In this document: one piece after another, positions 12,720 through 54,338 of the stretch
How the letters are laid out: each line of letters begins with the position of its first letter
Position numbering within the stretch: position 1 is the first letter of the stretch
Origin: Candidatus Omnitrophota bacterium
GTDB lineage: Bacteria; Omnitrophota; Gorgyraeia; Zapsychrales; Fredricksoniimonadaceae
Reading direction: 5' to 3'
DNA length: 64,000 nucleotides
Assembly (NCBI GenBank): GCA_903944345.1
Contig: CAJARJ010000016.1
Span: 25,852-89,851, forward strand
The notes under the pieces: model-generated
What the model was told of the DNA's origin: nothing
What the model saw: only the letters and a program-made list of their open reading frames with translations
Databases searched by the model: none
Position numbers and translations under genes: made by a program

Positions 12720-12752
12720 CCGCTAGAATCAGGAGCTGACGGTTCAGCAGAG

Positions 12753-37225: not shown

Positions 37226-37606
37226 ATGAAAATTATAATTGTTGATGATTCCTTGCTTGATCGCAAGTTGTTGTCTCGTACGCTGGTCAACAGCGGAGTC
37301 AAAAATGAAATTCTGCAGGCCGAGAACGGCGAGGCAGGAATGAAGTTGATCGCCGAGAATCTGGGGCATATTGCAGTTTTATTGCTGGATTATCAGATGC
37401 CCGAGATGTCCGGAGTCGAACTTATGGAAGCCTTGGTCAAAGTTCCGCAAACGGCCAGTATTCCGATGGTTATGGTTACAGCATCGACTTCAGATGATAG
37501 CCGGGCAGCCGCCTATAAGGTCAATCCCAATCTGGCGGGTTACGTGTACAAGCCGTATAAACCGGACCAATTGCTGGAACCGATTCGTTCCTATCTGCAA
37601 TTCTGA
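37226..37606 (+). CDS. single-domain response regulator (CheY-like receiver)
   Basis: MKIIIVDDS…LLLDYQMPEMSGVELMEAL…VMVTAS… (DD pocket, phospho-acceptor D, conserved T/K positions). Confidence 0.85.
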   Translation: MKIIIVDDSLLDRKLLSRTLVNSGVKNEILQAENGEAGMKLIAENLGHIAVLLLDYQMPEMSGVELMEALVKVPQTASIPMVMVTASTSDDSRAAAYKVNPNLAGYVYKPYKPDQLLEPIRSYLQF

Positions 37607-37614
37607 AAGGTTTT

Positions 37615-38202
37615 ATGCCCCAAGAAATTCCAGGCATCCAGAATCGCGAACTTTATGAGTATTCCCAAATTCTGATTGCGGCAGTTAAAAAAATGTTGCA
37701 CCTCAAGGGTGGACTTGTTCTGTCTACCGAGCCGGATATTACTGAAGAGAAGATTGTTGAATTCGGACGCCGGATGCGGGTGGATGGGTTGTCCAAGTTT
37801 TCCGAGAAGACAGTTTTCTCTAATATTGTTTTTTATTTGAGTAAAACGGAAATGGACAATAAACAGGCAATAGGCAGTCTGGTCTTTTATATTCCGATCA
37901 GTTATATTGCAAAATTGTTGTGGATCTTTGATTATCCCCGGATTGATGAAGACGATGAAACGGCTGTTCTTGATGGTTGCGGGACGGTTGCAAACCTTTT
38001 GGCTGGCTGGTTTGTCAAGGGATTGTGTGGCTTTGGCTATATTCATCTGGAAATGTCACATTTCGAAAGTTTTATTAATACGGCAGTTAATGGTGTTGAA
38101 TTTTCGTCCGATCAAACAGTAAAACATCGGATAGATTTTTGTATCAAGGGTCAGAAAAAACTGGTTGCAGAGTTAACCATGGGGTATATTCCGCGTTATT
38201 AG
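37615..38202 (+). CDS. hypothetical protein, possibly CheX/CheC-like phosphatase
   Basis: …DETAVLDGCGTVANLLAGWF… resembles the E-x2-N…ANMIAG helix of CheX. It is immediately downstream of the receiver gene. Confidence 0.35.
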   Translation: MPQEIPGIQNRELYEYSQILIAAVKKMLHLKGGLVLSTEPDITEEKIVEFGRRMRVDGLSKFSEKTVFSNIVFYLSKTEMDNKQAIGSLVFYIPISYIAKLLWIFDYPRIDEDDETAVLDGCGTVANLLAGWFVKGLCGFGYIHLEMSHFESFINTAVNGVEFSSDQTVKHRIDFCIKGQKKLVAELTMGYIPRY

Positions 38203-38916: not shown

Positions 38917-39360
38917 ATGTTTTTTGTGTTTCTACGATGGATTACAGGATTTGTTTTTCTGGTTTCGGGGATAGAAAAGCTTGTGTCTCCTCCGGAAAAT
39001 TTTCTTTATATTGTTCGTTCCTACCAGATTCTTCCTGGCTGGCTGGCCGGTCCGGTTTCGTTTCTTTTTCCTTGGGTGGAGTTCTTTGCGGCGGTTTTTC
39101 TAATACTCGGGTTCTGGCTCAGAACCGCTTTATGGGTTGCTTTATGTTTGGCGGCCGGTTTTGTGTTCTTTGTTTCCCAGGCCTTGTTCCGGGGATTGTC
39201 GATTTCAGACTGCGGTTGTTTTGGAGAGTTGATTCACCTTCAGCCCCGGCAGGTTATTATTCTGGATCTATTGATTCTTGTGGGCGCTGGATTGTGTTTG
39301 CGTCGCCTCAACCAGAGCGCACGCTGGAGCTTGGATGCCTGTTACGCCCGGAATAAATAA
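38917..39360 (+). CDS. 4-TM membrane protein of the DoxX/MauE type with CGC motif
   Basis: Four hydrophobic helices. …LSISDCGCFGE… between TM3 and TM4. The stop overlaps the next start (TAATG). Confidence 0.55.
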   Translation: MFFVFLRWITGFVFLVSGIEKLVSPPENFLYIVRSYQILPGWLAGPVSFLFPWVEFFAAVFLILGFWLRTALWVALCLAAGFVFFVSQALFRGLSISDCGCFGELIHLQPRQVIILDLLILVGAGLCLRRLNQSARWSLDACYARNK

Positions 39361-40829
39361 TGAAGAGACTGTTTGTTTTTATTATGGTTAATCTTTTTCT
39401 GTGTGCCGGCGCTTTTGGCGCAGATGGTCTGAAAGACCCCAATGTTTCGGGGACATTCTATCCTTCGTCAGGGGAGGAGTTGTTGGCGATGGTGCGCGGT
39501 TACCTTGCCTCCGGAGAGGTTGACCCGCTTCATAGTGGTGTTATTATTGCGCCGCATGCGGGGTATGTTTATTCGGGGGAAGTTGCAGGCAAGACTTTCA
39601 AAGCAGTTTCCGGGCGGAAAGTTGCCACAGTTGTTATTCTTGCTCCCAGCCATTATTATGCTTTTGAGGGGGCCTCGGTCTGGGCTGAGGGAGTTTTTCG
39701 TACGCCTTTGGGAGATGTTGCTGTTGATTCCGTACTGGCAGGGAATGTTCTTTCCTCGGACAAGCGCTTTGTTTTTGAGCGTGCGGTATTTGAACGCGAA
39801 CATGCTGTTGAGACGCAGTTACCGTTTATCCAGGCCACCTTTCCTCAGGCTAGGATTGTTCCGATCATTTTGGGCCGTCCGGATTTTGATTTATCGAACA
39901 GTCTTGGACGGGTTTTGTCTGAGGTTGTCGGTGATCGGGACGATGTGTTGATTTGTGTCAGTTCGGATCAGTCACACTTTCATCGGGACGAGGAGGCAAG
40001 AAAAATTGACCAGCGTGGATTGGCGGCCATCGAGCAAATGGACGTCAGGGCCTTCTGGAACGGTCATGTTGATGGTAGTATGGAAGTTGATGCCTTTCAT
40101 GCGATTACGGCGGCCATGATTTATGCCGGGAACAAAGGGCACAATATCGTCAGAATTGTTGATTACAAGACTTCTTTTGACACGACCCGGGACAGTTCCC
40201 GTGTTGTAGGTTACGCAGGCGTTCTTATATCAAGTCCTCCTTTGGAGAAGGCTTCCAAACAGTTGGATTCCATTAGGGATGACGGGGGTCTTTCGGATCA
40301 GCAGCGGGCACGTCTGTTGGAAATTGCGAGGAGTACGCTGGACATGTTTGTCCGGACTGGAAAGATACCGGCTTTTGTTGAATCCGACGCTCGCCTTCGG
40401 GCTGAGGAGGGAGCGTTTGTGACGCTGCGCCATCAGGGTCAGTTGCGCGGCTGTATCGGCAACATTTTAGGCCGTGGACCGCTTTTTAATATGGTGCGGG
40501 ATATGGCGGTGGCTGCGGCTTCAGAAGACCCGCGTTTTCCTGGTGTAACACCTGGGGAACTTTCCGAGATCAAGATAGAGATTTCGGTTCTATCCAGACC
40601 GCGGCGGATTGCCACTCCAAACGAGGTTGTGCTGGGCAAACACGGAGTTATTGTCAGTCGGGGCGGAAGAAAGGGAGTCTTTTTGCCCCAGGTCGCAGTT
40701 GAGACCGGATGGGATCTTGAGCGTTTTTTGTCGGAGCTTTGTGTTCAGAAAACGGGTCTTTCTGCGGATGCCTGGAAAGATGCCGCGACAACCCTGGAAG
40801 TGTTTACAGCAGATGTTTTTGGTGAATAG
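39360..40829 (+). CDS. Memo-like (AmmeMemoRadiSam system protein B) / AMMECR1 fusion protein with N-terminal Sec signal peptide
   Basis: N-terminal MKRLFVFIMVNLFLCAGAFGA↓DG (n-h-c regions, AxA-like site). Memo motifs …SGTFYP…, …GVIIAPHAGYVYSGEVAG…, …VCVSSDQSHF… The C-terminal AMMECR1 domain carries the conserved …LRGCIGNI…. Confidence 0.8.
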   Translation: MKRLFVFIMVNLFLCAGAFGADGLKDPNVSGTFYPSSGEELLAMVRGYLASGEVDPLHSGVIIAPHAGYVYSGEVAGKTFKAVSGRKVATVVILAPSHYYAFEGASVWAEGVFRTPLGDVAVDSVLAGNVLSSDKRFVFERAVFEREHAVETQLPFIQATFPQARIVPIILGRPDFDLSNSLGRVLSEVVGDRDDVLICVSSDQSHFHRDEEARKIDQRGLAAIEQMDVRAFWNGHVDGSMEVDAFHAITAAMIYAGNKGHNIVRIVDYKTSFDTTRDSSRVVGYAGVLISSPPLEKASKQLDSIRDDGGLSDQQRARLLEIARSTLDMFVRTGKIPAFVESDARLRAEEGAFVTLRHQGQLRGCIGNILGRGPLFNMVRDMAVAAASEDPRFPGVTPGELSEIKIEISVLSRPRRIATPNEVVLGKHGVIVSRGGRKGVFLPQVAVETGWDLERFLSELCVQKTGLSADAWKDAATTLEVFTADVFGE

Positions 40830-41126: not shown

Positions 41127-42224
41127 ATGGGGCGCAATGATGTCCGTAATTTATGGATTTTTACTGCGCTGGTTATTGTTATCGGCTTGGTCGCTCTTTT
41201 CAGTGCTTCGCATGAGAACCTCCGGGTTGAGCGCAAGATTTTTTATGACCAGCTCTTTGGCGCCGTGCTTGGAATGGGGATTATGCATTCTCTTGGGCGC
41301 GTTCCGTTGCGTTTTTACTACGACATTGCCTATCCGTTCTATGCTTTGAGCGTGGTTTTGCTGCTGCTGGTTCTTGTTGCAGGGCATTCGGCGCTGGGTG
41401 CTACGCGTTGGTTTAATGTGTTTGGTGTCCGTTTTCAGCCCTCGGAACTTTCCAAAGTCGCTGTTATTCTCATGCTTGCCCGTTATTTTAGTCAGCGTCC
41501 GCCCAAGCTCTCTTTTAGTCTGAGAAGTTCTTTTGATTTTCTCAGACGGGATTTGCTGGTGCCGTTGCTTCTGACGCTCTTGTCTTTCGGACTTATTTTT
41601 AAACAACCGGATCTTGGGAGTGCGCTTCTGGTGTTCGGGATTTTTATTGTCATGCTTTATGCCAGCGGGGTGGCGGTCGGTATTTTTAACGCTTTTCTAT
41701 GCTGCTGTGCTGTTATGGTTCCTGTGGGGTGGCATTTTCTCAAGGAATATCAACGTAACCGTTTGCTGGTTTTTCTTAACCCCAATATCGATCCTCTGGG
41801 AACCGGGTATAATATCATTCAGTCCAGGATTGCGGTGGGGTCAGGGCAATTGTTTGGCAAAGGATGGTTTTCAGGAACGCAGAATCAGTTGAATTTTCTT
41901 CCGGAGAGACACACGGATTTTATTTTCTCAGTGATTGGAGAAGAGTGGGGGTATATAGGGGGAGTTGCTTTGCTGGGTTGTTATTTTATGCTTGCGCATA
42001 CGGGCCTGCATATTGCCCAGGGGCTCAAGGATCGTTTTGCCCGTCAGGTTGCACTGGGGATTACGGCTATTCTGGTTCTGCAGGTGGTAATCAATATTTC
42101 TATGACCATCGGGTTGGCGCCGGTTGTCGGGATCACTCTTCCTTTGGTCAGTTATGGACGGACATCTTTTCTTGTGTTTATGGTGATGATGGGAATCCTT
42201 CTTAGTCTCTCTCGTCGACGCTGA
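41127..42224 (+). CDS. SEDS-family peptidoglycan glycosyltransferase (FtsW/RodA)
   Basis: 10-TM SEDS architecture. …LGSALLVFGIFIVMLYASG…, …GTGYNIIQSRIAVGSGQLFGKGW…. Confidence 0.85.
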   Translation: MGRNDVRNLWIFTALVIVIGLVALFSASHENLRVERKIFYDQLFGAVLGMGIMHSLGRVPLRFYYDIAYPFYALSVVLLLLVLVAGHSALGATRWFNVFGVRFQPSELSKVAVILMLARYFSQRPPKLSFSLRSSFDFLRRDLLVPLLLTLLSFGLIFKQPDLGSALLVFGIFIVMLYASGVAVGIFNAFLCCCAVMVPVGWHFLKEYQRNRLLVFLNPNIDPLGTGYNIIQSRIAVGSGQLFGKGWFSGTQNQLNFLPERHTDFIFSVIGEEWGYIGGVALLGCYFMLAHTGLHIAQGLKDRFARQVALGITAILVLQVVINISMTIGLAPVVGITLPLVSYGRTSFLVFMVMMGILLSLSRRR

Positions 42225-42252: not shown

Positions 42253-42281
42253 TTGACAAAGGTAATCTCGCTCGTTATAGT
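42253..42281 (+). promoter_or_regulatory. near-consensus sigma70 promoter (TTGACA-17-TATAGT)
   Basis: Seen directly. It lies ~90 nt upstream of the ATG at 42369 and inside the 5' part of track ORF 42228..42818. Confidence 0.5.
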
Positions 42282-42368: not shown

Positions 42369-42818
42369 ATGCGTTTTGAACGGGTATCTGGCAAGCAGTT
42401 GGGCGAGTTGCTGATCGAACGTGGAGTGCTCGATCGCGACGCTTTAGCTTCTGCTCTGGAGCACAAGAAAAATCATCCGGATCTTTTGTTGGGAGAAATT
42501 CTTGTCAATTCGGGCAAGGTCACCGAGGAAGACATTGTCCAGGCCTTGACCTCCCAGTACGGTTTCCCGTATTTGCCATTGGGCAATTATGAAATTGATA
42601 AAGAAACGCTGGCGGTTATTCCACGAAATCTTTGCTGGCAGTACTGTTTAATTCCTATCGACAGAATTGGCAAGAGCCTTACTCTGGCAATTTCCAACCC
42701 CCTGAATCTGGAAGCTCTTGAGGATGTTGAATTGCTGACGGGATGTGCCACCCAGGTTTTCGTCAGTACATCCCGGGATATTCGTGATGCCATCCAACGT
42801 TATTATGGTTCGGCATAA
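42369..42818 (+). CDS. stand-alone T2SSE_N / MshEN-like domain protein
   Basis: Two 24-residue motifs separated by exactly 5 residues: QLGELLIERGVLDRDALASALEHK-KNHPD-LLLGEILVNSGKVTEEDIVQALTSQ. The start is taken at the ATG at 42369, downstream of the promoter. Confidence 0.75.
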   Translation: MRFERVSGKQLGELLIERGVLDRDALASALEHKKNHPDLLLGEILVNSGKVTEEDIVQALTSQYGFPYLPLGNYEIDKETLAVIPRNLCWQYCLIPIDRIGKSLTLAISNPLNLEALEDVELLTGCATQVFVSTSRDIRDAIQRYYGSA

Positions 42819-44545
42819 TGGCTACTTTCAAGGATCGTATCAAGGCCGTTCTTATCAGGGATCAGATCCTAAAGGCGGAAGATCTTGAGCTTGCCCTGGA
42901 GGAACAAAAGAAGACCGGAGGGGAGCTCTCCGGTATTCTCATCCGTCTTGGAATGATTAATGAAGAGCAGCTTGCGTATCTTCTAAGTGAAGGGCTCAGC
43001 CTTCCGGTTCTTGATATTGCCCGGATGCGTCTTGATCCTGATGTTGTCAGCATTATCCCTCCTGAAGTCTTGCGAAAGTATCATATTCTCCCTGTATCCC
43101 GTCTTGGCAATAATATTTCTTTGGCTATGGTTGACCCGTTGAATATTTTTGTGATTGATAATGTCAAAGCCTTGACAGGGCTGACCATATCGCCGGTTAT
43201 TGGGCGCAGCCGTGATATCCAGGAGGCGATTGAGCGATACTGTGCGCCCCGGAAGGAGGCGGACTCTTTTGCAAAAATTATGCAGGATATAAAAGGAGCC
43301 GATGATCTTGAATTGATCAGTGACGGTGTCGACAAATCTGACAGCAAAGAGACTGAGCATCTTGTCCAGGAGGCGCCGATAATTCGTTTGACCAATACGA
43401 TTATCCGTCAGGCGGTTGTCGCCAAGGCCAGCGATGTTTTTATTGAGCCGGTCGATAATGCACTGAGAATCCGCTATCGGGTCGATGGCGTGTTGCGCGA
43501 AATTGACCGTATGTCGAAGGCCTTGCATTTTCCGATAGTTTCGCGCCTGAAAGTTGTTTCCAATCTTGATATTTCGGAACACAGATTGCCTCAGGATGGC
43601 CGGTTCCGGTTAATGCTTGAGGGCGGACGGGAAGTGGACTTCAGGGTCAATGTTCTTCCGACCGCCCATGGAGAGAAGATTGTTTTGCGTGTTTTGGATA
43701 AAGGCCAGGAGCACGTGAATATTGACAATCTCGGCATTGAGCCTGAGCCTTTGCGTCAGATTAAGGAATGCGCGGTTCGTCCGCATGGGATGGTTCTGGC
43801 CTGCGGGCCGACCGGTAGCGGCAAAACGACAACACTTTATTCCATTCTCAAATTTATTGATTCTTCCGAAAAGAATATTGTGACGGTTGAAGATCCTGTG
43901 GAATATCAGATGAAGGGGCTCAATCAGGTCAATATTCGTTTTGAAGTTGGATTGACTTTTACCTCGACCTTGCGTTCGGTTCTGCGTCAGGATCCGGATG
44001 TGATTATGATTGGTGAAATTCGTGATTCGGAGACGCTGGACATTGCGGTTAAAGCAGCGTTGACCGGGCATATGGTTCTGAGTTCTTTGCATACGACTAC
44101 CGCGGCGGGTTCTGTGGTTAGAATGATTAATATGGGGATTCAGCCGTTTCTGGTTTGTGCATCGGTCAACTGTTTTATGGCCCAGCGACTGTTGCGCAAG
44201 ATATGCCCCAAGTGCAAGGAGGAAATTCGTATTTCGGAAACCTTGTATAACAAGTTGATGATTGCCAGGGTTCTGCCCGGCAAGGATATGGTCTTCTGGA
44301 AGGGCCGGGGGTGTAACCATTGCCAGGGGTCAGGTTACAGCAGCCGCCTCGTTGTCAGCGAAGTTCTGGTTCTTTCGCCAGCGGTCAAGAAGCGGATACT
44401 TTCCGGTTCGGGGGAGATGGAGATCAAATCTGTGGCGCGTGCTGAAGGTATGAAGACCATGCGCGAGGATGCGCTGCTCAAAGCTTCCCGGGGACAGACA
44501 ACTCTCGAGGAAGTGGTCAGGGTTACGGCACAGGATGAGAGTTAG
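42818..44545 (+). CDS. pilB: type IV pilus assembly ATPase PilB / GspE-family secretion ATPase (paralog 1)
   Basis: N-terminal T2SSE_N/MshEN-like motifs. Walker A GPTGSGKTTTLYS, Asp/His boxes, and a C-terminal tetracysteine CPKC…CNHC. Confidence 0.85.
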   Translation: MATFKDRIKAVLIRDQILKAEDLELALEEQKKTGGELSGILIRLGMINEEQLAYLLSEGLSLPVLDIARMRLDPDVVSIIPPEVLRKYHILPVSRLGNNISLAMVDPLNIFVIDNVKALTGLTISPVIGRSRDIQEAIERYCAPRKEADSFAKIMQDIKGADDLELISDGVDKSDSKETEHLVQEAPIIRLTNTIIRQAVVAKASDVFIEPVDNALRIRYRVDGVLREIDRMSKALHFPIVSRLKVVSNLDISEHRLPQDGRFRLMLEGGREVDFRVNVLPTAHGEKIVLRVLDKGQEHVNIDNLGIEPEPLRQIKECAVRPHGMVLACGPTGSGKTTTLYSILKFIDSSEKNIVTVEDPVEYQMKGLNQVNIRFEVGLTFTSTLRSVLRQDPDVIMIGEIRDSETLDIAVKAALTGHMVLSSLHTTTAAGSVVRMINMGIQPFLVCASVNCFMAQRLLRKICPKCKEEIRISETLYNKLMIARVLPGKDMVFWKGRGCNHCQGSGYSSRLVVSEVLVLSPAVKKRILSGSGEMEIKSVARAEGMKTMREDALLKASRGQTTLEEVVRVTAQDES

Positions 44546-44548
44546 ACT

Positions 44549-46252
44549 ATGTTGAGCATTCGTCAGAAAATCATGGATGCGTTACTGGCTATGCCAGGCG
44601 TTTCTGCTTCGCAGCTTGAGACTGCCCAGGAGGCCCAGCGGATCCAGAAAGTCTCTTTTGGTGAAGTGTTGGTCGCACAGGGGATTATTAGCGAAAAGGA
44701 TTTGTTTCTGCTTTTGGTAAGGGAGTTGCACATTCCTTCCATTAACCTGGCCAAGTTTCGTATGGATCCTCAGTTGCGGGAGCTGGTTCCGGAGCGGCTT
44801 GCGCGGCAGTATAATATGGTGCCCATTTCCTTGATGGGTGATCATATGACTGTAGCAATATCAGACCCGTTGAATGTTTTTGCTGTGGATGATTTAAGGG
44901 ATCTTACGGGTAAAGGCATAGATATTGTTATGGGAACGCCGTTGCAGATTCGTGAGGCTTTGGATAAGTTTTATGGCGCACCTGGCGAGGATACTGTGGC
45001 AGATGTTGCCAAGGGGATTGATATAGGGGATTTGGAGATTATGTCTGCTTCTGCAGATCGTACGGAATTCGCCGAGACCGGGGCGGCGGACCAGGCTCCG
45101 ATTATACGTATGGTCAATCTGGTGATCAAGGAGGCCATTCAGCAGCGGGCATCTGATATCCACATGGAACCTACGGAAACCAATATGAGGGTGCGTTACC
45201 GCGTGGATGGCGTTCTGCTGGATGTTCTTGAGATTCCTCGTGAAAGCCGGAATTCTGTTGTGGTTCGCATCAAGATCATCTCCAGAATTGATATTACGGT
45301 TAACCAGGTCCCTCAGGACGGACGTTTTAGAATGCGGGTGTCCGGTAAAGAAGTGGATTTCAGGGTTTCCATTCTTCCCACATCGCACGGATCGAAGATT
45401 GTGATGCGGATTCTTGATAAGGCCAAGCTTTCGGTTGGTTTGGGGCATTTGGGCTTTTCTCAACAGGCGGTGACCCTGATCGATGAGGCGATTGTCAAGC
45501 CGTTTGGAATGATTCTTGTCACCGGGCCTACCGGAAGCGGCAAGTCGACAACGCTTTATTCTATTATCAGCAAGCTTAATACAATTGACAAAAATATTAT
45601 TACTATTGAGGATCCTGTCGAATATCTGGTGGATGGATTGACCCAGATCGAGGCGCGAAGCGAGATCGGCTTGACTTTTGCCGCAGGACTGCGAGCAGTT
45701 CTTCGGCAGAGCCCGGACATCGTTATGGTTGGAGAAATTCGTGACAATGAGACAGCAGACATTGCGATCAAGGCAGCCTTGACCGGGCAGTTGGTTCTTT
45801 CAACCCTGCATACCAATGATGCCGCAGGAGCTATGACCCGTCTGGTGGATATGGGGGTGGAGCCGTTTCTGGTGGCGTCTTGCCTGGTGCTTATTTGTTC
45901 ACAGCGTCTGGCTCGGAAAATATGTCCGCATTGCAAGAAAGAAGTGGAGATTCCGGAGGAAACCTTGCAGTCTTTGCATTTGCCTGCGGATAAAAAGATT
46001 GTTTTTTTTGAGGGGCAAGGTTGTGAACGTTGCCGGCATACAGGTTATCTCGGGCGTTTTGGTTTGACTGAAATCCTGGTGGTGGATGATGCTATTCGGG
46101 AAATGTTGCTGCAGGGGAAGTCTTCGGACGAGATTCGGGATTATGCCCGGAGCGTAAAAGGAATGAAGCTGCTGTGGGATGACGCGCTGGACAGTCTTGC
46201 CCAGGGCAAAACGACGCTTGCTGAAGTGTGCCGTGTCGCGTCTTTTGAATAA
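44549..46252 (+). CDS. type IV pilus assembly ATPase PilB / GspE-family secretion ATPase (paralog 2)
   Basis: Same architecture as paralog 1. Walker A GPTGSGKSTTLYS, tetracysteine CPHC…CERC. Confidence 0.85.
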   Translation: MLSIRQKIMDALLAMPGVSASQLETAQEAQRIQKVSFGEVLVAQGIISEKDLFLLLVRELHIPSINLAKFRMDPQLRELVPERLARQYNMVPISLMGDHMTVAISDPLNVFAVDDLRDLTGKGIDIVMGTPLQIREALDKFYGAPGEDTVADVAKGIDIGDLEIMSASADRTEFAETGAADQAPIIRMVNLVIKEAIQQRASDIHMEPTETNMRVRYRVDGVLLDVLEIPRESRNSVVVRIKIISRIDITVNQVPQDGRFRMRVSGKEVDFRVSILPTSHGSKIVMRILDKAKLSVGLGHLGFSQQAVTLIDEAIVKPFGMILVTGPTGSGKSTTLYSIISKLNTIDKNIITIEDPVEYLVDGLTQIEARSEIGLTFAAGLRAVLRQSPDIVMVGEIRDNETADIAIKAALTGQLVLSTLHTNDAAGAMTRLVDMGVEPFLVASCLVLICSQRLARKICPHCKKEVEIPEETLQSLHLPADKKIVFFEGQGCERCRHTGYLGRFGLTEILVVDDAIREMLLQGKSSDEIRDYARSVKGMKLLWDDALDSLAQGKTTLAEVCRVASFE

Positions 46253-46324
46253 TTCAAATTTTCGCTGTTTAATCCGGAGTGCCCTAATATAATAATTTCG
46301 GAATCAATATGGGAGTAAACAATT

Positions 46325-46780
46325 ATGCCCGTATGTTGTCGGCGGAAACAACTTATCGGACGCATTCTGCTTGATCGGGGCGTGATCACCGAACCTGAAT
46401 TGCAGCAGGCGCTTTTGGCCCAGAAGAAGGTTGAGAACCGGTTTTGTCTCGGCGAGATTCTTGTGACGATGGGACGGCTTCGTGAGATAGATGTAGCGAT
46501 AGCACTGGTTATTCAGCATGGGCTTTCTTATATTGCTCTTGCCAGTCAGGACATTCATCGGGAAGTTCTTGATTTGATTCCTGCGGGGGTAGCGCGCAGT
46601 CAAAGGCTGGTGCCGCTTGATCGCATCGGTAGGGTTCTGAGCGTGGTTACGCAGAATCCCCTTAACGATGAGGCGCGAGCGGATGTGGAACACGCGACCG
46701 GCTGCCGGATTGCAACCTTTCTTTCCACGCGCTCGGAGATTGATGCGGCGCTTTCCCGTTTTTATCCGGAGACATTTTGA
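46325..46780 (+). CDS. stand-alone T2SSE_N / MshEN-like domain protein (second copy)
   Basis: …QLIGRILLDRGVITEPELQQALLAQ… and …FCLGEILVTMGRLREIDVAIALVIQ… GGGA RBS. Overlaps the pilC start. Confidence 0.75.
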   Translation: MPVCCRRKQLIGRILLDRGVITEPELQQALLAQKKVENRFCLGEILVTMGRLREIDVAIALVIQHGLSYIALASQDIHREVLDLIPAGVARSQRLVPLDRIGRVLSVVTQNPLNDEARADVEHATGCRIATFLSTRSEIDAALSRFYPETF

Positions 46781-48000
46781 TGCCGACTTTTAGTTATACC
46801 TGCAAGGATCAGAATGCTCAGACCGTTACCGGTAAGATCGATGCCAGCGAATTGGGTCTGGTAGTTGACGAACTGCGAAGGCGGCAGTTGGTTATTATCA
46901 GTATTGACGAAGCGAAGGCGGCAGTTTCTTTCTTGACGGCAAAAGGCCCTGGGCCCAGTGGGCATGCCGTGAAAACAGAGGATGTTATTCTGTTTACGCG
47001 TCAGATGGCGACCATGGTTGATGCAGGTATCCCTATTCTTCAGACCATGGAAGCACTGGAAGAGCAGGCCTCCAATCTTTCTTTCAAGAAAATCCTGGCA
47101 GGGATTCACGAAGATATCCGTCTGGGTTCCAGTCTTTCGGGAGCCTTCACAAAGTATCCACGCGTTTTTAACAATCTTTTTGTCAATATGATCAAGGTCG
47201 GGGAAACGGCAGGAGTTCTTACGACCGTTCTGGATCGAGTTGCTTCCTATATGGAAAAATCCGAGCGTCTCAGACGCAAAGTCACGGGGGCCATGATTTA
47301 TCCGGCAGTTATTTCCTCGATGGCCATAATTATTGTGATTGTCCTGATGGTCTTTGTGGTGCCGACCTTCAAGACAATCTATAGTTCGATGGGTCAGGCG
47401 CTTCCGCCCATGACCAGAGTTCTTATGTCTTTCAGCGAGGGGTTTCAGAAATTGTTTCTCTATGGTCTGGTTGGTGGTGTGGCTTGTTTTATTTTGTTTG
47501 TTAATTATGCCAAAACTGCGGCCGGTTCAATGCAAATCGATTATCTGAAGCTGCGCTTTCCGCTTTTTGGAGATCTTGTTTGCAAGGTTGCTGTCAGTCG
47601 CTTCTGTCGCACGCTTGCAGTTCTTGTCCAGAGCGGTGTTCCGATTCTGGAGGGACTTGATATTGTACGCAAGACAATTGGGAATCGGGTTCTTGAGAAA
47701 GTAGTTGAAGATGTCATCAAGTGTGTCCGGGAGGGCGAAAGCATTGCCGAGCCCTTGCAGCGCAGCCGGGTTTTCCCGGTTATGGTGACGCGGATGATTG
47801 CTATTGGAGAGCAGTCCGGCCAGCTGGACAAGATGATGTTAAAGGTTGCGGATTTCTATGATGAACAGGTGGATGCTGTTCTGGAGAACATGACCAGGCT
47901 TATTGAGCCTTTGATTATCGGTTTCCTTGGCATTGTAATCGGGTTTATTGTGATCGCGCTGTTTATGCCAATTATGAATATGGCACAAATGGTCAAGTAA
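46777..48000 (+). CDS. pilC: type IV pilus assembly platform protein PilC (GspF family)
   Basis: Two T2SSF repeats. MMPTFSYTCKDQNAQTVTGKIDA…, three TM segments. Confidence 0.9.
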   Translation: MMPTFSYTCKDQNAQTVTGKIDASELGLVVDELRRRQLVIISIDEAKAAVSFLTAKGPGPSGHAVKTEDVILFTRQMATMVDAGIPILQTMEALEEQASNLSFKKILAGIHEDIRLGSSLSGAFTKYPRVFNNLFVNMIKVGETAGVLTTVLDRVASYMEKSERLRRKVTGAMIYPAVISSMAIIIVIVLMVFVVPTFKTIYSSMGQALPPMTRVLMSFSEGFQKLFLYGLVGGVACFILFVNYAKTAAGSMQIDYLKLRFPLFGDLVCKVAVSRFCRTLAVLVQSGVPILEGLDIVRKTIGNRVLEKVVEDVIKCVREGESIAEPLQRSRVFPVMVTRMIAIGEQSGQLDKMMLKVADFYDEQVDAVLENMTRLIEPLIIGFLGIVIGFIVIALFMPIMNMAQMVK

Positions 48001-48013: not shown

Positions 48014-49054
48014 ATGACAAGTATCAGATTATTGGTTCTTTGCAGTTTTATACTGGCGTTGTTTGCAGGAGCTTCATGTCTGGCGCAGCAGGAAGATTTA
48101 TTGCAGGAGAATATTCTTGATAGCAGCCTGACAGCTTTGCGCGATAGTGTGGCGCGTTTGACTCTGGAAAACAGGGAACTGACGGCGCTTAATGAACAAA
48201 TGAAACCTCAGCTGACGGAGTTGAACAAATCTTTTGCCGCTGGGCAGGCTGCGGAAGATCAGTTGATGAAAGATCTTGCTGTGACCGAGGCTGCTTTACG
48301 TCAGAGGCAGGAGGCCGAAAGTTCTATCCATAGCAAAGTTTTGCAGGTTCAGGGCGAGGTGGATCTTGTTGCCAAGAACTGTAACTTGTTAATGAGCGAT
48401 CTTTTGGCCAGATCTGCTGCTGATGAAACTTTACGTAAGGAAATAGTTTTACTGGAACAGCAGAATTTCCAGTTGCGTTTTGGCGAGCCGGAGGCAACTG
48501 TTGAGCCAGATGACACTTTGCGCGATCTTTTGGCCGAGCGCGAACGCTTGAACAAAGAACTTTCCGGAGCCAAGCAGTCCATGCAGGAGTTAAGAGAGCG
48601 CTGGGCTGCTATGGGAAAGTCGGCTGTCGCAACAGATCCGGTCCGGGTGAATGTTCTTCGAGGCGAGATCCAGCAGATTTCCATGCAGATTCGTAATAAA
48701 GAGGCGGAGTGTAAACGGCTTGAAGCCAAGGTAGTTGCGGCCAAGAATGCGTCACCTTCCGGACGCTCCGAAGAATTTGTTCGTCAGGATATCAAACAGC
48801 GTCTTGAGCAGGAAGTTGGGCGTCTGGAGGCTCGTTTGGAAGAGCTTGAAGCCGAATCCAGAGGGGTGAGAAAGGGTGAGCCAGAGGTTCCATCCACAAT
48901 GGAGCATCCAGTTAACAGCAGATTGTGGGCCCGTTTCAAGGCTCTTTCGCAGCAGAATACGCAGTTAAAGGCCGAAATGGATCGCTTGCGTCGGGCGATG
49001 GTCGAAGCAGATAAGAACAAGGCGCGGGCAGAGGCAGGGCGGGTCCAGAAGTAG
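48014..49054 (+). CDS. exported coiled-coil protein of unknown function (within pilus locus)
   Basis: Signal peptide MTSIRLLVLCSFILALFAGASCLAQQ, then ~320 aa of heptad-rich sequence. Confidence 0.5.
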   Translation: MTSIRLLVLCSFILALFAGASCLAQQEDLLQENILDSSLTALRDSVARLTLENRELTALNEQMKPQLTELNKSFAAGQAAEDQLMKDLAVTEAALRQRQEAESSIHSKVLQVQGEVDLVAKNCNLLMSDLLARSAADETLRKEIVLLEQQNFQLRFGEPEATVEPDDTLRDLLAERERLNKELSGAKQSMQELRERWAAMGKSAVATDPVRVNVLRGEIQQISMQIRNKEAECKRLEAKVVAAKNASPSGRSEEFVRQDIKQRLEQEVGRLEARLEELEAESRGVRKGEPEVPSTMEHPVNSRLWARFKALSQQNTQLKAEMDRLRRAMVEADKNKARAEAGRVQK

Positions 49055-49330
49055 TTTTTTTGTTTCTATCGTTAGAGCATGATATATTTGTTATCAGAGA
49101 ATCCGGCGTGGTTGCGCGGTTTCCCGACTCCTGCATACCTAAAATACTATGGAGCAGGGATTACTGCAAAGGCTTCGTCAGGAAATGCAAAAAGGAAGGA
49201 GGAAGGCGGAAGAGTTAAAATAAAAATGGGGTGCTTGGTTGAGAAAAAGCAGGTCAATCAACGGTCTTATAACTAGCTACCGTGTTTCTTCTCAAGGCAT
49301 CCTTCGGTTTCATCAACAAGAAGGAGTTTT

Positions 49331-49738
49331 ATGTCTAATAAAAAAGGTTTTACTTTGGTTGAGATCATGATTGTTATTGCAATTATTGCTTTGTTGGCTG
49401 CAATTGCCATCCCAAACTTGCTGCGTGCCAAGATTTCGGCAAATGATTCATTGGCTAAAAGCACCTTGCGGTCGCTTTCTACGGCTGCTGAAACTTTTGC
49501 TACTGCCAGAAGCGGTCAGTATCCTGCCGCGGTCGCAGATCTGACTGGAGCAACTCCGCCTTATATCAACAAGAACTATTGTGACGGTCAGGCTTATGGC
49601 GGATTTACTTATGCCTGTACGTTTGGTGTTGGCGGTTACACGTTGACTGCGACTCCTGTTACGGTGGGAACTTCCGGGACAGAGGCTATGACTATGACGA
49701 CCGGAGGTGTTTTGGCCTGTGCAACTTTGTGTAACTAA
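49331..49738 (+). CDS. pilA: type IV pilin (prepilin with class III signal peptide), probable major pilin
   Basis: MSNKKG↓FTLVEIMIVIAIIALLAAIAIPNL (G-1, F+1, E+5). Four Cys. Strong AAGGAG RBS, a long leader and its own terminator. Confidence 0.8.
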   Translation: MSNKKGFTLVEIMIVIAIIALLAAIAIPNLLRAKISANDSLAKSTLRSLSTAAETFATARSGQYPAAVADLTGATPPYINKNYCDGQAYGGFTYACTFGVGGYTLTATPVTVGTSGTEAMTMTTGGVLACATLCN

Positions 49739-49760
49739 TACACAGTTTATGGGATAACAA

Positions 49761-49790
49761 AAAAGGGCGTCCAGACGGGCGCCCTTTTTT
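49761..49790 (+). terminator. rho-independent terminator after the first pilin gene
   Basis: AAAAGGGCG-(10-nt loop)-CGCCCTTTT plus a T run. Confidence 0.6.
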
Positions 49791-49838
49791 GACGTTGATA
49801 CCCGGGAAGTCTCGGTTCTTCAGACAGGAACAGCAAAT

Positions 49839-50249
49839 ATGATTCGTGTCCGATCAGGTCTTACGTTGGTTGAGGTTATGGTGGTGGCCACTATTATAGC
49901 CTTGTTAGCTGCGATCGCTCTTCCTAATCTGCGCAGGGCCAAAATTCTGGCCAACGATGCTTTTGCCAAGACCACTTTGGGGGCGATAGCCAAGGCTTGC
50001 GAGAATTATGCCATTGCGAATAATAGTCGTTATCCTCTGGATATTACTGCCTTGACCGGGGCTAGTCCGGTTTATCTTTTTAGAAATGATTGTGATGGAG
50101 CGGTTCATAATGGGTATATCTTCAGTTGCAATATGGGGATTGGCGGATACACGATTGTTGCCGCCCCCTTGCAGCCCGGAGTCTCCGGAACGGAGGAGTT
50201 TACCATGACAACAGGGGGTGTTCTGAACTGCGATACTTTGTGTCAATAG
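49839..50249 (+). CDS. type IV pilin paralog
   Basis: MIRVRSG↓LTLVEVMVVATIIALLAAIALPNL. Same four-Cys pattern and the same C-terminal TMTTGGVL-C-TLC box as the first pilin. Confidence 0.75.
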   Translation: MIRVRSGLTLVEVMVVATIIALLAAIALPNLRRAKILANDAFAKTTLGAIAKACENYAIANNSRYPLDITALTGASPVYLFRNDCDGAVHNGYIFSCNMGIGGYTIVAAPLQPGVSGTEEFTMTTGGVLNCDTLCQ

Positions 50250-50295
50250 TTCAGATTATTTCATTTTTTTTATCCGCTGATTTATAATTGCGGCG

Positions 50296-51447
50296 TTGAC
50301 TGATTTATTTTGCAGAAATCCCAGAAATATGTTCTCTGCAGCGCCGATCTTTGTTATATTCAAGTCAATGCAATCAATACAAACTTATCTTTCCCAATAT
50401 TTTAAGTTTATCAGATCAGTAATCTCTGCACATAACGATGCGGGTGTGGTGGGGCTTGATCTGGGCTCCAGTACATGTCGTGCCGTCAAGATCGTTCCGC
50501 AGCAGAATACTTTCGAGCTGACCGGTTTTATTTGCATTCCCTTTAAAGATAATGAGGCTAAGAATGCTCTGCTAAGTGTTGTAAAAGCTTTTTCTCAGGG
50601 GAAGACTGTTCCGGCTTTTGTCGGGGCGGTTTGCGGGCGAGGGACATTGGTTCGATATATCGATATGCCACGGATGTCGTTGTCTGATTTGAGAAAGGCT
50701 TTCAGCATTGAGGTGGAGCGATATTTTCCGTTTCCCAAGGATACGATTTATACGGATTGTCATATCCTTGATCCTGACAGCCAGGATCGGCGCATGTCGG
50801 TTTTGATAGCCGCTGTCAAGAGGGAGATGGTGGATGCCAGATTGAAGCTTCTTAAAGAATGCGGGATTGATCCGGCGGTTTTAACCATTAATTCTGTTGC
50901 TCTTGCCAATGCGGCGACTTTTCTTGCTTCAGGATTGAATGCCCCCGGGACTATGAATTCTGCGTCTGCTCTGCTGGAAATCAACGAGGCACACGCTCAT
51001 TTGATGATATTTGTTAACGGTATCCCGAAATTCTCCCGGGATATTTTTATTGGTATCGCTGAGATGATCAAGAGGATTTCGAATGCCTGTAGTCTTTCGC
51101 CGGAGGCTGCGCGCGCAGCTCTTTTTTCGGCCGATCAAGATGAGCGAGTCGTCCGGATTGCCGAAACAGTCGTTGCCAATCTTGTAGCAGAGGTGCGCCT
51201 TTCTTTTGATTATTTCGGGAATGAAAAGAATATACCGATTGCGAAGCTTTTTTTGGTGGGCGAAGGTGTTATGGTGCCAGGATTGGAATCAGGCTTCACC
51301 CGTGCTTTTGATGTCCCTGTGGCGGCATGGGATCCTTTTTCTGGTATCAGTATCGGTCCGGGCGTAGACAAAGGCAGACTTGCTGCAGAGGGCAGATCCG
51401 CGATAATCGCTTTGGGGTTAGCGTTAAATGAATATTATTCGGCTTAA
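50296..51447 (+). CDS. pilM: type IV pilus assembly protein PilM (actin-like ATPase fold)
   Basis: …VVGLDLGSSTCRAVKI… The start may be an internal ATG. It overlaps the pilN start. Confidence 0.8.
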   Translation: MTDLFCRNPRNMFSAAPIFVIFKSMQSIQTYLSQYFKFIRSVISAHNDAGVVGLDLGSSTCRAVKIVPQQNTFELTGFICIPFKDNEAKNALLSVVKAFSQGKTVPAFVGAVCGRGTLVRYIDMPRMSLSDLRKAFSIEVERYFPFPKDTIYTDCHILDPDSQDRRMSVLIAAVKREMVDARLKLLKECGIDPAVLTINSVALANAATFLASGLNAPGTMNSASALLEINEAHAHLMIFVNGIPKFSRDIFIGIAEMIKRISNACSLSPEAARAALFSADQDERVVRIAETVVANLVAEVRLSFDYFGNEKNIPIAKLFLVGEGVMVPGLESGFTRAFDVPVAAWDPFSGISIGPGVDKGRLAAEGRSAIIALGLALNEYYSA

Positions 51448-52018
51448 TTTTATTCCCGCTGAAATGCGTCGGGAAAAGAATCGTTGGTTCTCTGCCGGAA
51501 TCGCGGGGATTCCCCCGGAACGTATTGTGGGTATTCTTCTTGCGGCTGCAGTTCTTCTTATTTTGTTTCATATTGTGTTACTTGCTGTTATGGCCGTTAA
51601 ATATACTGAAAATCGTATTTTGGAAGCCAGGTGGTCAGCTTCCAGCCCCGAGAAGCAATCGGTTGATCTTTTGTCCAATGAAACGCGCGAGTTGAGGTCT
51701 GCTTTGGACGCTTTCAAGCCTGTTCTATCGCAAGGCAATATCCACTGGCCGCGTTTGCTTGCGGATATTTCCGCAAGCATGCCCAAGGGCATATGGTTGA
51801 CCAGTATGACTTATGCTGATGGACAATTGGTTATTATGGGCAGTTCTGTTTCCAAAACACGTAACGAAATGGTTTCTCCAGGCATGTTGGTTTCTGCACT
51901 GAAGCAGAAGGATTCTGTTCAACGGTTTCTTGCGGCAATCGATGTGGATTCGATTCAGCGCAGGGAGGCGACAGCTTTGTCTATAGTTGATTTCACCTTA
52001 AAGGCCAGACAGAAATGA
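51428..52018 (+). CDS. pilN: type IV pilus assembly protein PilN
   Basis: MNIIRLNFIPAEMRREK…, single TM. Position in the pilMNOPQ order. Confidence 0.75.
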   Translation: MNIIRLNFIPAEMRREKNRWFSAGIAGIPPERIVGILLAAAVLLILFHIVLLAVMAVKYTENRILEARWSASSPEKQSVDLLSNETRELRSALDAFKPVLSQGNIHWPRLLADISASMPKGIWLTSMTYADGQLVIMGSSVSKTRNEMVSPGMLVSALKQKDSVQRFLAAIDVDSIQRREATALSIVDFTLKARQK

Positions 52019-52602
52019 CCCGACTACAGTCTTTGATCAGAATGTTTGATTCGTCGGATCCCCGCCTGGTGTATGGTGTTATTGCTCTGCTGGTTGTTTT
52101 GTTTGCCGGCCTGGACTATTTTCTTGCGGCCCGGTTTCAGCTGAGCCGTCTGGGGGCTGTTGTTGCAAGATCCGCTCAGCTGAAGAAAGACATTCTGGAG
52201 TTGAAGGACAGCCAGAATCGCATTCAGCAATTATCGTCCCAGAGAGACACTTTGCGGCTGGATCACGCGGATTTGCAACGGATGATTGTCAGTAAAGACG
52301 GGATCCCTGTTGTTCTGGACAGGATTTCTTCTGTTGCAGGACGCTGTGGCGTTCAGGTGAATCAGATTCTTCCCCGGCCGATGGAAGATAAACCTTTGCT
52401 CAAGCGCAAAGAAGGTGCTTATTTCAGTCAACCGGTACAGGTTCAGTTGCGGGCCGGGTATCATGATTTTGCCCGGATGTTGGACGAATTGATGCGCCAG
52501 GGAGTTTTTTGGAAGATTGATGAGTTGCGGATAACAGCTGGAGAATCGGAACAACGGCATACCATTGAAATGATCCTGAGAGTTTTGATTCTGGAGAAGT
52601 AA
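52015..52602 (+). CDS. pilO: type IV pilus assembly protein PilO
   Basis: N-terminal TM, coiled coil. Position between pilN and pilP. Confidence 0.7.
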   Translation: MTRLQSLIRMFDSSDPRLVYGVIALLVVLFAGLDYFLAARFQLSRLGAVVARSAQLKKDILELKDSQNRIQQLSSQRDTLRLDHADLQRMIVSKDGIPVVLDRISSVAGRCGVQVNQILPRPMEDKPLLKRKEGAYFSQPVQVQLRAGYHDFARMLDELMRQGVFWKIDELRITAGESEQRHTIEMILRVLILEK

Positions 52603-52952
52603 TGCGCATACGGCCATGGTTATTGCTTGTGTTTTTGTCTGTAATGATGCCTTGGTTCCTGATGGCTGAGGAACCCTTCAGGTATGATGGGGGTGGACTG
52701 CGGGATCCTTTTCTTCCTTTGGTAACAGAAGGTGGTGCGCTGGTGAATTATGACCGGGATCCTGCCGTTTCCGAACTTGTGCTGGAGGGTATTGTTTTTG
52801 ATGGTAGTCGTTCGCTGGCCGTTATTAACGGTGATATTTTTCAGGAAGGGCAGAAAGTTGGGCTTTATTTGCTTGATCGCATTGCATCAGACAGAGTGCT
52901 GTTGTCCAGAGATGGCGAAACATTCATGCTCCAGTTAAATAAGGAGGACTAA
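52602..52952 (+). CDS. pilP: PilP-like pilus assembly protein
   Basis: Signal sequence, then a beta-rich segment (…LVLEGIVFDGSRSLAVINGDIFQEGQKVG…). Position upstream of pilQ. Confidence 0.55.
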   Translation: MRIRPWLLLVFLSVMMPWFLMAEEPFRYDGGGLRDPFLPLVTEGGALVNYDRDPAVSELVLEGIVFDGSRSLAVINGDIFQEGQKVGLYLLDRIASDRVLLSRDGETFMLQLNKED

Positions 52953-54338
52953 GTGAAAGAATATGTCCAGGGGCCGGTTTTAACGGTTTTGTTCCTGATG
53001 CTTGCCGGGATATCTTCTTCTGTCCTCGGGCAGCAAACGGTTGCTGGCACGCAGTCAGCAGCGCTGGACGTCGAGATGTCCCAGTCGGGCAACGTTTCCG
53101 TTGATTTCAAGGACGCGGATATCCGCAATGTTCTTAAAGTTCTCGCTTACAAGAGCGGGGTTAATATTATTGCGGCACCCGAGGTAGTCGGGCAGGTTTC
53201 GATACAGCTCAAGGATGTTCCCTGGCAGAAGGCGCTGGATGTGATTCTGTCGACATATGGTTACAGTTATGAACAGGATGGCAAGATCCTGATGGTGACC
53301 ACGATTGATAATCTCAAGAAGCGCAGGGAGAATATGAAGGCATTGGCGGAGCAGGAGCTGGTGATCTCCGAAACTTTTGTCCTTAATTACGGCAAGGCCG
53401 AGGAGGTCAGAGCCTCAATTGACAAGATGAAGAGTCCCCGGGGAAGTATTCATTGGGACAAACGGATGAATGCAATTATTGTCAGCGATGTTGAAACCAG
53501 TCTGAGAATGATCCGTGCGGTCATTAAAGAGCTGGATACCGTGACACCCCAGGTGTACATCGAAGCCAAAATGATCGAGACTACCCTGAACAAATCGGAG
53601 AATCTTGGAATTGACTGGAATGTTGTTGCTTCTGTGACGGGGCCGATGCGGGCTACGACTTATCCTTTCACGGGGAATTCTCAGAACAAGTACACCAACA
53701 GCCCGGACTTTCCGGTATCAACCGATGAGGTGGAGCCCTTCTTTCAGTACGGCACGCTGGATTTGACCAAGGCCACCGCGATGTTGAACATGCTCAAGTC
53801 CCGGGCGGATACCAATATCGTCTCCAATCCCAAAATTGTTACTTTGAATAATCAGACCGCAAAGATTGTGGTAGGCAGTCAGTACCCTGTCCCTCAGTAT
53901 ACCTACAATAGCGATCAGGGGAAAATGCAGGTTTCCGGATGGAATTATATTGACATCGGTGTTGTTTTTGTGGTAACACCTCACGTCAACAATGCCGGGA
54001 TGGTCACGCTGGATTTGGAGCCGACAGTTACCGATATTCTGGATTATGTTCAGGTTGAGGGGACGCAAATGCCGCGGCTCAGTACCGAGTCGGCTAGAAC
54101 GACAGTCATGATTGCTGACGGAGACACGCTGGTTATTGCCGGTCTTATTAAAACGAAAAAAGGGGATACACGCAAGAAGTTCCCTATACTCGGGGATATT
54201 CCAATACTGGGGCTTCCGTTTCAGTCAAAGATTGCTCAGGATCAGAAAACGGATCTTGTTATTTTTATGACGCCAAAGATCGTTACCCCTGTTGCAGCGG
54301 GCCGCAAGCAAGAGCGGGTTGAAAGCGATGAAATTTGA
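52953..54338 (+). CDS. pilQ: type IV pilus secretin PilQ
   Basis: Signal peptide, N0/N1-like domains, and the C-terminal secretin motif …VIAGLIKTKKGDTRKKFPILGDIPILGLPFQ…DLVIFMTPKIV. Confidence 0.85.
   Translation: MKEYVQGPVLTVLFLMLAGISSSVLGQQTVAGTQSAALDVEMSQSGNVSVDFKDADIRNVLKVLAYKSGVNIIAAPEVVGQVSIQLKDVPWQKALDVILSTYGYSYEQDGKILMVTTIDNLKKRRENMKALAEQELVISETFVLNYGKAEEVRASIDKMKSPRGSIHWDKRMNAIIVSDVETSLRMIRAVIKELDTVTPQVYIEAKMIETTLNKSENLGIDWNVVASVTGPMRATTYPFTGNSQNKYTNSPDFPVSTDEVEPFFQYGTLDLTKATAMLNMLKSRADTNIVSNPKIVTLNNQTAKIVVGSQYPVPQYTYNSDQGKMQVSGWNYIDIGVVFVVTPHVNNAGMVTLDLEPTVTDILDYVQVEGTQMPRLSTESARTTVMIADGDTLVIAGLIKTKKGDTRKKFPILGDIPILGLPFQSKIAQDQKTDLVIFMTPKIVTPVAAGRKQERVESDEI

Follow-up and report, generated by a model that had tools for sequence, protein, structure and literature searches.

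In a 64,000-nucleotide (nt) window of Candidatus Omnitrophota DNA (contig CAJARJ010000016.1, positions 25,852 to 89,851 of the forward strand), we analyzed a type IV pilus operon in which two small genes, here termed small1 and small2, accompany two tandem genes for PilB/GspE-family ATPases, PilB-a and PilB-b. Each small open reading frame (ORF) encodes one complete MshEN domain, not a fragment of PilB. We put at roughly 55% the probability that the sensing of cyclic di-GMP (c-di-GMP) has been shifted in this system from the ATPases to these free MshEN proteins, which would act on the motor in trans. The first-pass annotation of the window had suggested that the small proteins are free c-di-GMP receptors or regulators of the pilus motor, and this predicted role is the reading best supported by the residues retained, the predicted fold, a natural gene fusion, translational coupling and the enzymes encoded in the operon of relatives.

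The genes of the region lie on the + strand, in the order rodA, small1, PilB-a, PilB-b, small2, PilC and the remaining pilus genes. The two small ORFs were found exactly where they had been placed before, small1 at 42369..42818 (149 amino acids, aa) and small2 at 46325..46780 (151 aa). Between them lie PilB-a (42818..44545, 575 aa; T2SSE, E 3e-132) and PilB-b (44549..46252, 567 aa; T2SSE, E 1e-129), and small2 is followed by the gene for the platform protein PilC (46780..48000; T2SSF, E 2e-67). The ATG of PilB-a overlaps the stop codon of small1 (TAATG), and that of PilC overlaps the stop codon of small2 (TGATG).

Profile alignment, which had been proposed as a check, placed the N-terminal domains of all four proteins in register and far beyond chance. 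The Pfam MshEN model (PF05157), which in its current form covers the alpha/beta C-subdomain, matched small1 at 73.8, PilB-a at 79.6, PilB-b at 73.6 and small2 at 65.4 bits (cutoff 23.1; E-values 5e-18 to 2e-22, with 1e-20 for small1 and 5e-18 for small2). The NCBIfam model NF053729, a 53-residue "c-di-GMP_motif" profile with a cutoff of 38 bits, scored small1 at 51.1, PilB-a at 41.7 and small2 at 40.6 bits, all above the cutoff, and PilB-b at 28.6 bits, below it; motif position 1 fell on residue 10 of the small proteins and residue 7 of the ATPases. By sequence, small1 matched the N-domains of Thermus thermophilus PilF, Geobacter PilB and Vibrio cholerae MshE in the PDB, with E-values from 1e-11 to 1e-40.

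Structure prediction, also suggested earlier as a check on the four-helix geometry, gave an AlphaFold2 model of small1 (51 family sequences; mean predicted local distance difference test score, pLDDT, 87.9) with an MshE-like four-helix bundle, its helices spanning residues 11-17, 23-35, 41-47 and 53-64 and the first beginning at Leu11-Gly12, followed by an alpha/beta C-subdomain (aa 65-149), the two subdomains being closed on each other as in MshE. The top Foldseek match of this model was c-di-GMP-bound MshE (5HTL; template modeling score, TM, 0.80-0.85; root-mean-square deviation, rmsd, 2.1-2.2 Å), and the next matches were the Xanthomonas citri PilB N-domain with PilZ (7LKO) and PilF GSPII-B with c-di-GMP. 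The small2 model had a pLDDT of 75.3 and the same order of secondary structure elements, with a TM of about 0.49 and an rmsd of about 13 Å that reflect an unreliable subdomain orientation.

The published binding motif, RLGxx(L/V/I)(L/V/I)xxG(L/V/I)(L/V/I)xxxxLxxxLxxQ, occurs twice with a 5-residue spacer (PMC5013675). Because neither the strict motif nor the relaxed search pattern of its authors matched any of the eight motif copies in the window, positions were scored singly. In small1, motif I (QLGELLIERGVLDRDALASALEHK; aa 10-33, nt 42396-42467) agrees at 9/11 specified positions and motif II (LLGEILVNSGKVTEEDIVQALTSQ; aa 40-63, nt 42486-42557) at 8/11; in small2, motif I (LIGRILLDRGVITEPELQQALLAQ; aa 10-33, nt 46352-46423) agrees at 9/11 and motif II (CLGEILVTMGRLREIDVAIALVIQ; aa 41-64, nt 46445-46516) at 8/11. 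The position-3 glycine (Gly3) is kept in both half-sites of both small proteins (G12 and G42 in small1, G12 and G43 in small2). The terminal glutamine (Gln24) is present twice in small2 and once in small1 (Q63, with K33 in motif I). Position 1 is Gln and then Leu in small1, and Leu and then Cys in small2, of which Leu is allowed and Gln and Cys fall outside the R/K/L consensus. The motif region of PilB-a (aa 7-59, nt 42836-42994) is degenerate: motif I, RIKAVLIRDQ..., has Lys (K9) for Gly3 and Gln for Gly10, and motif II, ELSGIL..., has Ser (S38) for Gly3 and Gly for Gln24. In the corresponding region of PilB-b (aa 7-59, nt 44567-44725), motif I, KIMDALLAMP..., is degenerate, with Met (M9) for Gly3, Pro for Gly10 and Gln for Leu21, and motif II is partly intact (8/11, with Glu at its end). 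The spacer is 5 residues in both ATPases, 6 (KNHPDL) in small1 and 7 (KKVENRF) in small2.

These residues change the picture given by the first-pass annotation, which had reported four motif modules of the MshEN type. All four proteins do match MshEN profiles, but no copy fits the motif and the PilB N-termini are degenerate, leaving two modules that appear competent for sensing (small1 and small2) and two degenerate ones (PilB-a and PilB-b). The small1 spacer, described there as exactly 5 residues, has 6, so that Gly12 and Gly42 stand 30 residues apart against a canonical 29, and the string given for the second small1 motif ran to 25 residues instead of 24.

The importance of these positions is known from two proteins. 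The guanines are held in MshE by the backbone amides of Gly11-Asp12 and Gly40-Asp41, c-di-GMP binding is lost in the G11L and G40I variants, and the non-binder XpsE carries G11V and G40L (PMC5013675). In PilF, Ala at Gly3 of GSPII-A lowers affinity 10- to 30-fold (PMC12002112). Position 1 is more permissive: GSPII-B, with Lys and Leu there, binds at 6 nM and its K167L variant at 2 nM, and the consensus was widened to (R/K/L)LG..., the Arg being dispensable (PMC11731258). The Leu in motif II of small1 and motif I of small2 would thus be compatible with nanomolar affinity, as the same residue is in GSPII-B.

We compared these positions across 88 related loci, eight from exact-protein look-ups and eighty from a scan of metagenomes in which the small1 family alignment was the query, after classifying their ORFs against the window proteins. 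The metagenome loci were picked by similarity to small1 and include close relatives, so the counts are not phylogenetically independent. Gly3 was found in motifs I and II of all small1 proteins (87/87 each) and all small2 proteins (27/27 each). Gln24 was similarly constant, in 83/87 and 87/87 of the small1 motifs and in 27/27 of both small2 motifs. In PilB-a, Gly3 occurred in 0/69 of motifs I and 2/69 of motifs II (Ser in 64), and Gln24 in 67/69 and 0/69, respectively; in PilB-b, Gly3 occurred in 0/50 and 7/50, and Gln24 in 34/50 and 5/50. Position 1 was Q/H and then L in small1 relatives and L and then F/Y in small2 relatives. The 5-residue spacer was found in 72/87 small1 and 19/27 small2 proteins, making the window's spacers of 6 and 7 minority variants. 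Since Gly3 and Gln24 are invariant or nearly so in the free proteins and replaced in domains of the same fold attached to the ATPases of the same genomes, the invariance in the small proteins appears best explained by selection for ligand contact.

Both small proteins belong to conserved families. A search of a 5.8-billion-protein collection returned 2643 homologues of small1 at E<=1e-5. For small2 there were 14 homologues (94-154 aa, with 13/14 of 141-154 aa). Mean column identity in the small-protein families was 69-76%, with dozens of invariant residues. An alternative small1 start at 42228, which would yield a protein of 196 aa, is used by the public gene calls for the organism (L091, L092). 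We preferred the start at 42369 because the best 120 of the 2643 homologues span 148-162 aa, mostly 149-150 aa, with the same initial residues, and because a promoter-like site (42253-42281) falls inside the longer reading, which indicates that the 149-aa form is correct. In public records, small1-family proteins are called "hypothetical" or mislabelled "PilB"; many members carry the Joint Genome Institute (JGI) label "type IV pilus assembly protein PilB", a misleading name.

The small proteins are 42% identical to each other and 27-33% identical to the PilB N-domains. They are each other's closest relatives and therefore constitute a lineage of their own, not recent truncations of the ATPases; a derivation of small2 from a truncated PilB-b was rejected on the same grounds, its identity to the PilB N-domains being only 27-30%.

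The association of small1 with the motor genes is likewise conserved. Almost all named small1 homologues come from Candidatus Omnitrophota, and in every related locus with sequence downstream of small1 the gene is followed by PilB-a and then PilB-b. The stop codon of small1 overlaps the PilB-a start in 39/78 loci, 29 of which have the 1-nt TAATG overlap of the window. Coupling of small2 to PilC is not a general trait, as their overlap was found in only 2/26 loci. Small2 itself is present in about 60% of related operons. The first-pass annotation had regarded this arrangement as not a standard type IV pilus layout. That holds against model organisms, but within Candidatus Omnitrophota the order small1-PilBa-PilBb-(small2)-PilC is the norm, with 2643 small1 homologues and the same order in all related loci that have downstream sequence.

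One related locus, L009, contains a fusion of a small1-like domain to a PilB-a-like ATPase (8001-10298, 765 aa). Its residues 1-149 are small1-like (39% identity, E 2e-31) and are joined by a low-complexity, Gly/Asn/Lys-rich linker to a PilB-a-like part (aa 192-758) that is 42% identical to PilB-a and scores 486 bits against it versus 443 for PilB-b. The fusion gene is followed by a PilB-b orthologue (514 vs 459 bits) and PilC. Within the fusion, the outer MshEN copy retains the glycines and the inner copy is degenerate, like the split version. The fusion therefore links small1 functionally to PilB-a. Outside the related set, a scan of genome contigs with the small1 protein detected at least two distant loci, a Desulfobacteraceae PilB (L001) and a Deferribacteraceae protein (L002). 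In L002 (7956-10050), a stop-to-stop frame of 347 codons, with MshEN at its N-terminus and an unassigned C-terminal part, lies directly 5' of a 353-codon frame that matches only the PilB ATPase core, a non-fused arrangement outside Omnitrophota.

Enzymes of c-di-GMP turnover occur in the operon of relatives. Among the 42 loci that reach PilC, the position between PilB-b and PilC is occupied by small2 in 26, is empty in 10 (gaps of 1-142 nt) and holds a REC-HD-GYP protein in six (L056, L066, L069, L074, L085 and L087). The latter proteins are 357-369 aa long and have the HHExxDGxGYP signature; two were identified by Pfam HD_5 (E 3e-33 and 1e-35) and four by the signature together with BLAST similarity to the L017 protein. 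In L017 (11896-13900), a REC-GGEEF cyclase (GGDEF, E 4e-46) and a REC-HD-GYP protein lie directly 3' of PilB-b. Of 75 informative loci, 41 resemble the window in having rodA as the immediate 5' neighbour of small1, and 28 have a HAMP-GAF-GGDEF protein of about 470-490 aa inserted between rodA and small1 (L017 6552-7988, L018 6546-7979 and 26 further loci). This protein, absent from the window, was rejected as a canonical cyclase: its active site is of a degenerate type, RFGDHEF or RxGDNEF, and an RxxD I-site is lacking. It may serve as a scaffold, a sensor or a partner of small1. In relatives, a REC-HD-GYP phosphodiesterase and this membrane HAMP-GAF-GGDEF-like protein, encoded in the same operon, may form a local c-di-GMP circuit.

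The two ATPases are PilB/GspE-family motors of the pilus operon, not confirmed orthologues of the model PilB. PilB-a and PilB-b scored 604.7 and 593.7 bits, respectively, with the PilB equivalog model TIGR02538 (cutoff 675.65) and 543 and 580 bits with the GspE model TIGR02533 (cutoff 630), all below the cutoffs. Walker A, Walker B, the Asp box and the tetracysteine motif (CxxC pairs) are intact in both. PilB-a has TGH in the His box and GKT in Walker A, and PilB-b has TGQ and GKS instead, as do its orthologues in L003-L010. The presence of two long-diverged tandem paralogs suggests a hetero-oligomeric motor or a division of labour.

On these grounds a mechanism can be proposed. PilB-a and PilB-b would retain an MshEN-fold N-domain without the guanine-holding glycines and in part without the glutamines, probably kept for docking to the platform or to a partner. 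Small1 would be produced together with PilB-a, bind c-di-GMP in its four-helix bundle and dock on PilB-a without a covalent link, giving it a further regulatory module at the N-terminus that resembles the outer MshEN of (MshEN)2- or (MshEN)3-ATPases. Docking could then gate the ATPase activity or the engagement with the PilM/PilC platform, and small2 may act likewise on PilB-b or PilC. A fuller version, in which neither PilB binds the nucleotide, the free proteins plug into the motor (small1 into PilB-a, small2 into PilB-b or PilC) and relatives add a local c-di-GMP circuit, is a tentative proposal to which we give somewhat less than even odds. GGDEF domains and PilZ homologues have been reported in Omnitrophota (bioRxiv 10.1101/2023.11.21.568195).

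Several observations weigh against a shift of c-di-GMP sensing to the small proteins. GSPII-A does not bind when position 1 of motif II is Ser, and restoration of Gln24 is also needed there (PMC12002112), and motif I of small1 has Gln or His at position 1, which may likewise be unfavourable. With its consensus restored, GSPII-A still fails to bind, owing to an extended helix 1 and tight subdomain packing (PMC12002112), so a perfect motif is insufficient and sequence only makes binding likely. The small1 protein of the window departs from its own family in K33 (Q in 83/87) and the 6-residue spacer and may bind more weakly than typical members; small2 has a 7-residue spacer and a Cys at position 1 of motif II, where relatives have F/Y. 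The small2 model is of low confidence, its first helix being long and the orientation of its subdomains uncertain, so that its pocket geometry is not judgeable. PilB-a, at 41.7 bits, exceeds the NF053729 cutoff of 38, and a profile-level annotation would call it a binder. The docking of small1 on PilB-a is suggested by one fusion and by gene order. Finally, no gene for a c-di-GMP enzyme (GGDEF, EAL or HD-GYP), PilZ or PilT turned up in the 64-kb window, and c-di-GMP metabolism in this genome is presumed from the relatives and the phylum.

The strongest competitor, though an unlikely one, holds that the small proteins have a structural role without nucleotide binding and serve as adaptors, free N0/N1 modules joining the ATPases to PilM/PilC, comparable to the interaction of GspE N1 with GspL. 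The C-subdomain covered by PF05157 is the GspL-binding part in 2BH1 and 4PHT, which are weaker fold matches of small1, and the deviations at position 1 and in spacer length, together with the fact that the motif alone is no proof of binding, fit such a role. An adaptor would, however, leave unexplained why Gly3 and Gln24 are constant in the small-protein families and freely replaced in the ATPase domains, and the c-di-GMP enzymes within the operon of relatives also argue against it.

Somewhat less probable still is that the small proteins are decoys or anti-activators that compete, possibly in a c-di-GMP-dependent manner, for the site of the PilB N-domain on PilM/PilC and thereby inhibit extension. 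Their shared fold and 27-33% identity with the PilB N-domains would suit a competitor, and a small inhibitor of an extension motor exists in CpiA of Acinetobacter baylyi. Small inhibitors of extension motors and two-motor systems (PilB/TfpB) are discussed in PMC11656802. The L009 protein, however, carries the small1 module and PilB-a in one polypeptide, which fits a regulatory subunit acting in cis or in trans better than a competitor, and translational coupling implies roughly stoichiometric co-production.

That the small proteins sense another nucleotide, for example 3'3'-cyclic GMP-AMP (3'3'-cGAMP), seems improbable. MshEN is able to bind cGAMP as well (PMC5013675), and the Q/H at position 1 of motif I is unusual, but the guanine-contact residues are kept in both half-sites and the operon of relatives includes HD-GYP and GGDEF genes. 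The idea that the small ORFs are split pseudogene pieces of a third PilB, which the first-pass annotation had named as a finding that would overturn its proposal, or chance motif matches, is favoured by nothing beyond the shortness of the ORFs and their resemblance to PilB N-termini and can be dismissed, since length, position, translational coupling and sequence are conserved, HMM (hidden Markov model) E-values reach 1e-20, and no ATPase remnant was found 3' of either ORF.

A c-di-GMP signal received in trans by free MshEN proteins has partial precedents. The nearest functional one is PilB of X. citri and Pseudomonas, and the nearest structural one the multi-MshEN ATPases such as PilF. In X. 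citri, PilB has a degenerate MshEN_N without the c-di-GMP motif and receives its c-di-GMP input through docking of PilZ-FimX, and likewise in Pseudomonas (PMC8389850); the signal thus arrives in trans via docked small proteins (7LKO), but the receptor is the degenerate EAL protein FimX, bridged by a non-binding PilZ, whereas the putative receptor here is an MshEN protein. T. thermophilus PilF, of the (MshEN)3-T2SSE architecture (GSPII-B, 8PDK), likewise has several MshEN modules per motor, some competent and some degenerate, and its GSPII-C binds despite a longer spacer. All of its modules, however, are in one chain, whereas the operon described here encodes the putatively competent module in a gene of its own, alongside two ATPase paralogs.

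The N-domain of V. cholerae MshE (5HTL) shares with the small proteins the two-subdomain fold and tandem 24-residue half-sites, in which positions 2-3 are a hydrophobic residue and Gly, positions 17 and 21 are also hydrophobic and, except in motif I of the window's small1, the last residue is Gln. It differs in being covalently joined to its ATPase, in having Arg at position 1 twice and in its 5-residue spacer; the window proteins are free polypeptides whose position 1 is Q/L or L/C and whose spacers have 6 and 7 residues. In the (MshEN)2-T2SSE architecture (Cthe_1107 and the 765-aa L009 protein) the modules are fused, and in some members (P0152, P0153) both MshEN copies look intact; the module order of L009 equals small1 plus PilB-a, with PilB-b and PilC as the next genes. 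Pseudomonas aeruginosa PA3740, which combines MshEN_N with a diverged N1, also has MshEN without an ATPase domain and is listed as a c-di-GMP binder involved in swarming. Its C-terminal part is diverged, unlike that of the small proteins, and no pil operon or PilB partner is reported for it in the literature searched.

Stand-alone MshEN proteins as such are already present in databases. A search against 50%-identity representatives returned 17,697 clusters at E<=1e-3, many single-domain proteins of 145-180 aa being among the best 150, and Wang et al. listed many MshEN architectures (PMC5013675). In the literature searched, no work on a free MshEN protein encoded in a pil operon came up, nor any description of a pattern of competent free versus degenerate attached copies or of this Omnitrophota operon. 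MshEN belongs to the small number of c-di-GMP receptor domains that are widespread, and nearly all work on it has concerned its covalent form, at the N-terminus of PilB/MshE/GspE-type ATPases or of glycosyltransferases. Here, free MshEN proteins that form a large family have a clear genomic partner, and they provide a natural experiment: within the same genomes, the ligand-contact residues are retained in the free copies and lost from those attached to the ATPases. If c-di-GMP sensing has indeed moved to the free proteins, the sensor domain would be detachable from the motor and could be shared or exchanged, a defined target would for the first time be known for a free MshEN receptor (small1), and the phylum would have a common pilus control point, in largely uncultured and possibly host-attached nanobacteria. 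It would also follow that the position-3 glycines make a better annotation rule than a profile match, and there would be a handle on pilus control in Omnitrophota.

The operon likely starts between rodA (41127-42224), which lies directly 5' of small1, and small1, where the promoter-like site TTGACA-17-TATAGT (42253..42281, + strand) is the best match of the region (11/12), by consensus match only. Downstream of PilC, the operon continues on the + strand (48014..54338) with a coiled-coil protein, two pilins (49331-49738 and 49839-50249), PilM, a PilN-like protein, PilO and the secretin (52953-54338), identified by Pfam N_methyl, PilM_2, PilO and Secretin. The PilN-like ORF (51428-52018) had no Pfam match at E<=1e-5 and occupies the slot of an annotated PilN in related loci of the same order. 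The coiled-coil protein directly 3' of PilC (48014-49054, 346 aa) has an N-terminal hydrophobic segment and no convincing Pfam family; its counterparts in related operons, in the same slot, are 342-349 aa long (565 aa in L006).

In locus L018, a 744-aa HEAT-repeat protein (11881-14115) is encoded between PilB-b and small2; MshEN-UNK-HEAT is a known fused architecture, found in Myxococcus xanthus FrgA (Wang et al. 2016, Supplementary Table 4). Further upstream in the window, there is a 126-aa single-domain response regulator and, after it, a 195-aa protein without a Pfam match (37226-38202), and the same pair, together with a second receiver, occurs a few kb 5' of the pilus operon in L005, L007 and L008. 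In L010, a receiver gene lies directly 5' of the small MshEN gene. A MEMO-AMMECR1 fusion (39360-40829, 489 aa), with no adjoining radical-SAM partner noted, is found 5' of rodA in related loci as well.

No regulatory RNA or riboswitch was found near the operon, the only Rfam matches at the gathering threshold being RNase P RNA and two tRNAs. An RNase H-like ORF (18022-18531) and the RNase P RNA gene (18463-18876, 146.5 bits) share about 70 nt at the 5' end of the latter, and the end of the ORF or the boundary of the RNA within 18022-18876 may need checking. Across the whole window (1-64000), virtually every credible gene is encoded by the + strand and each 2-kb bin has a positive GC skew (0.11-0.22), an unusually strong strand bias.

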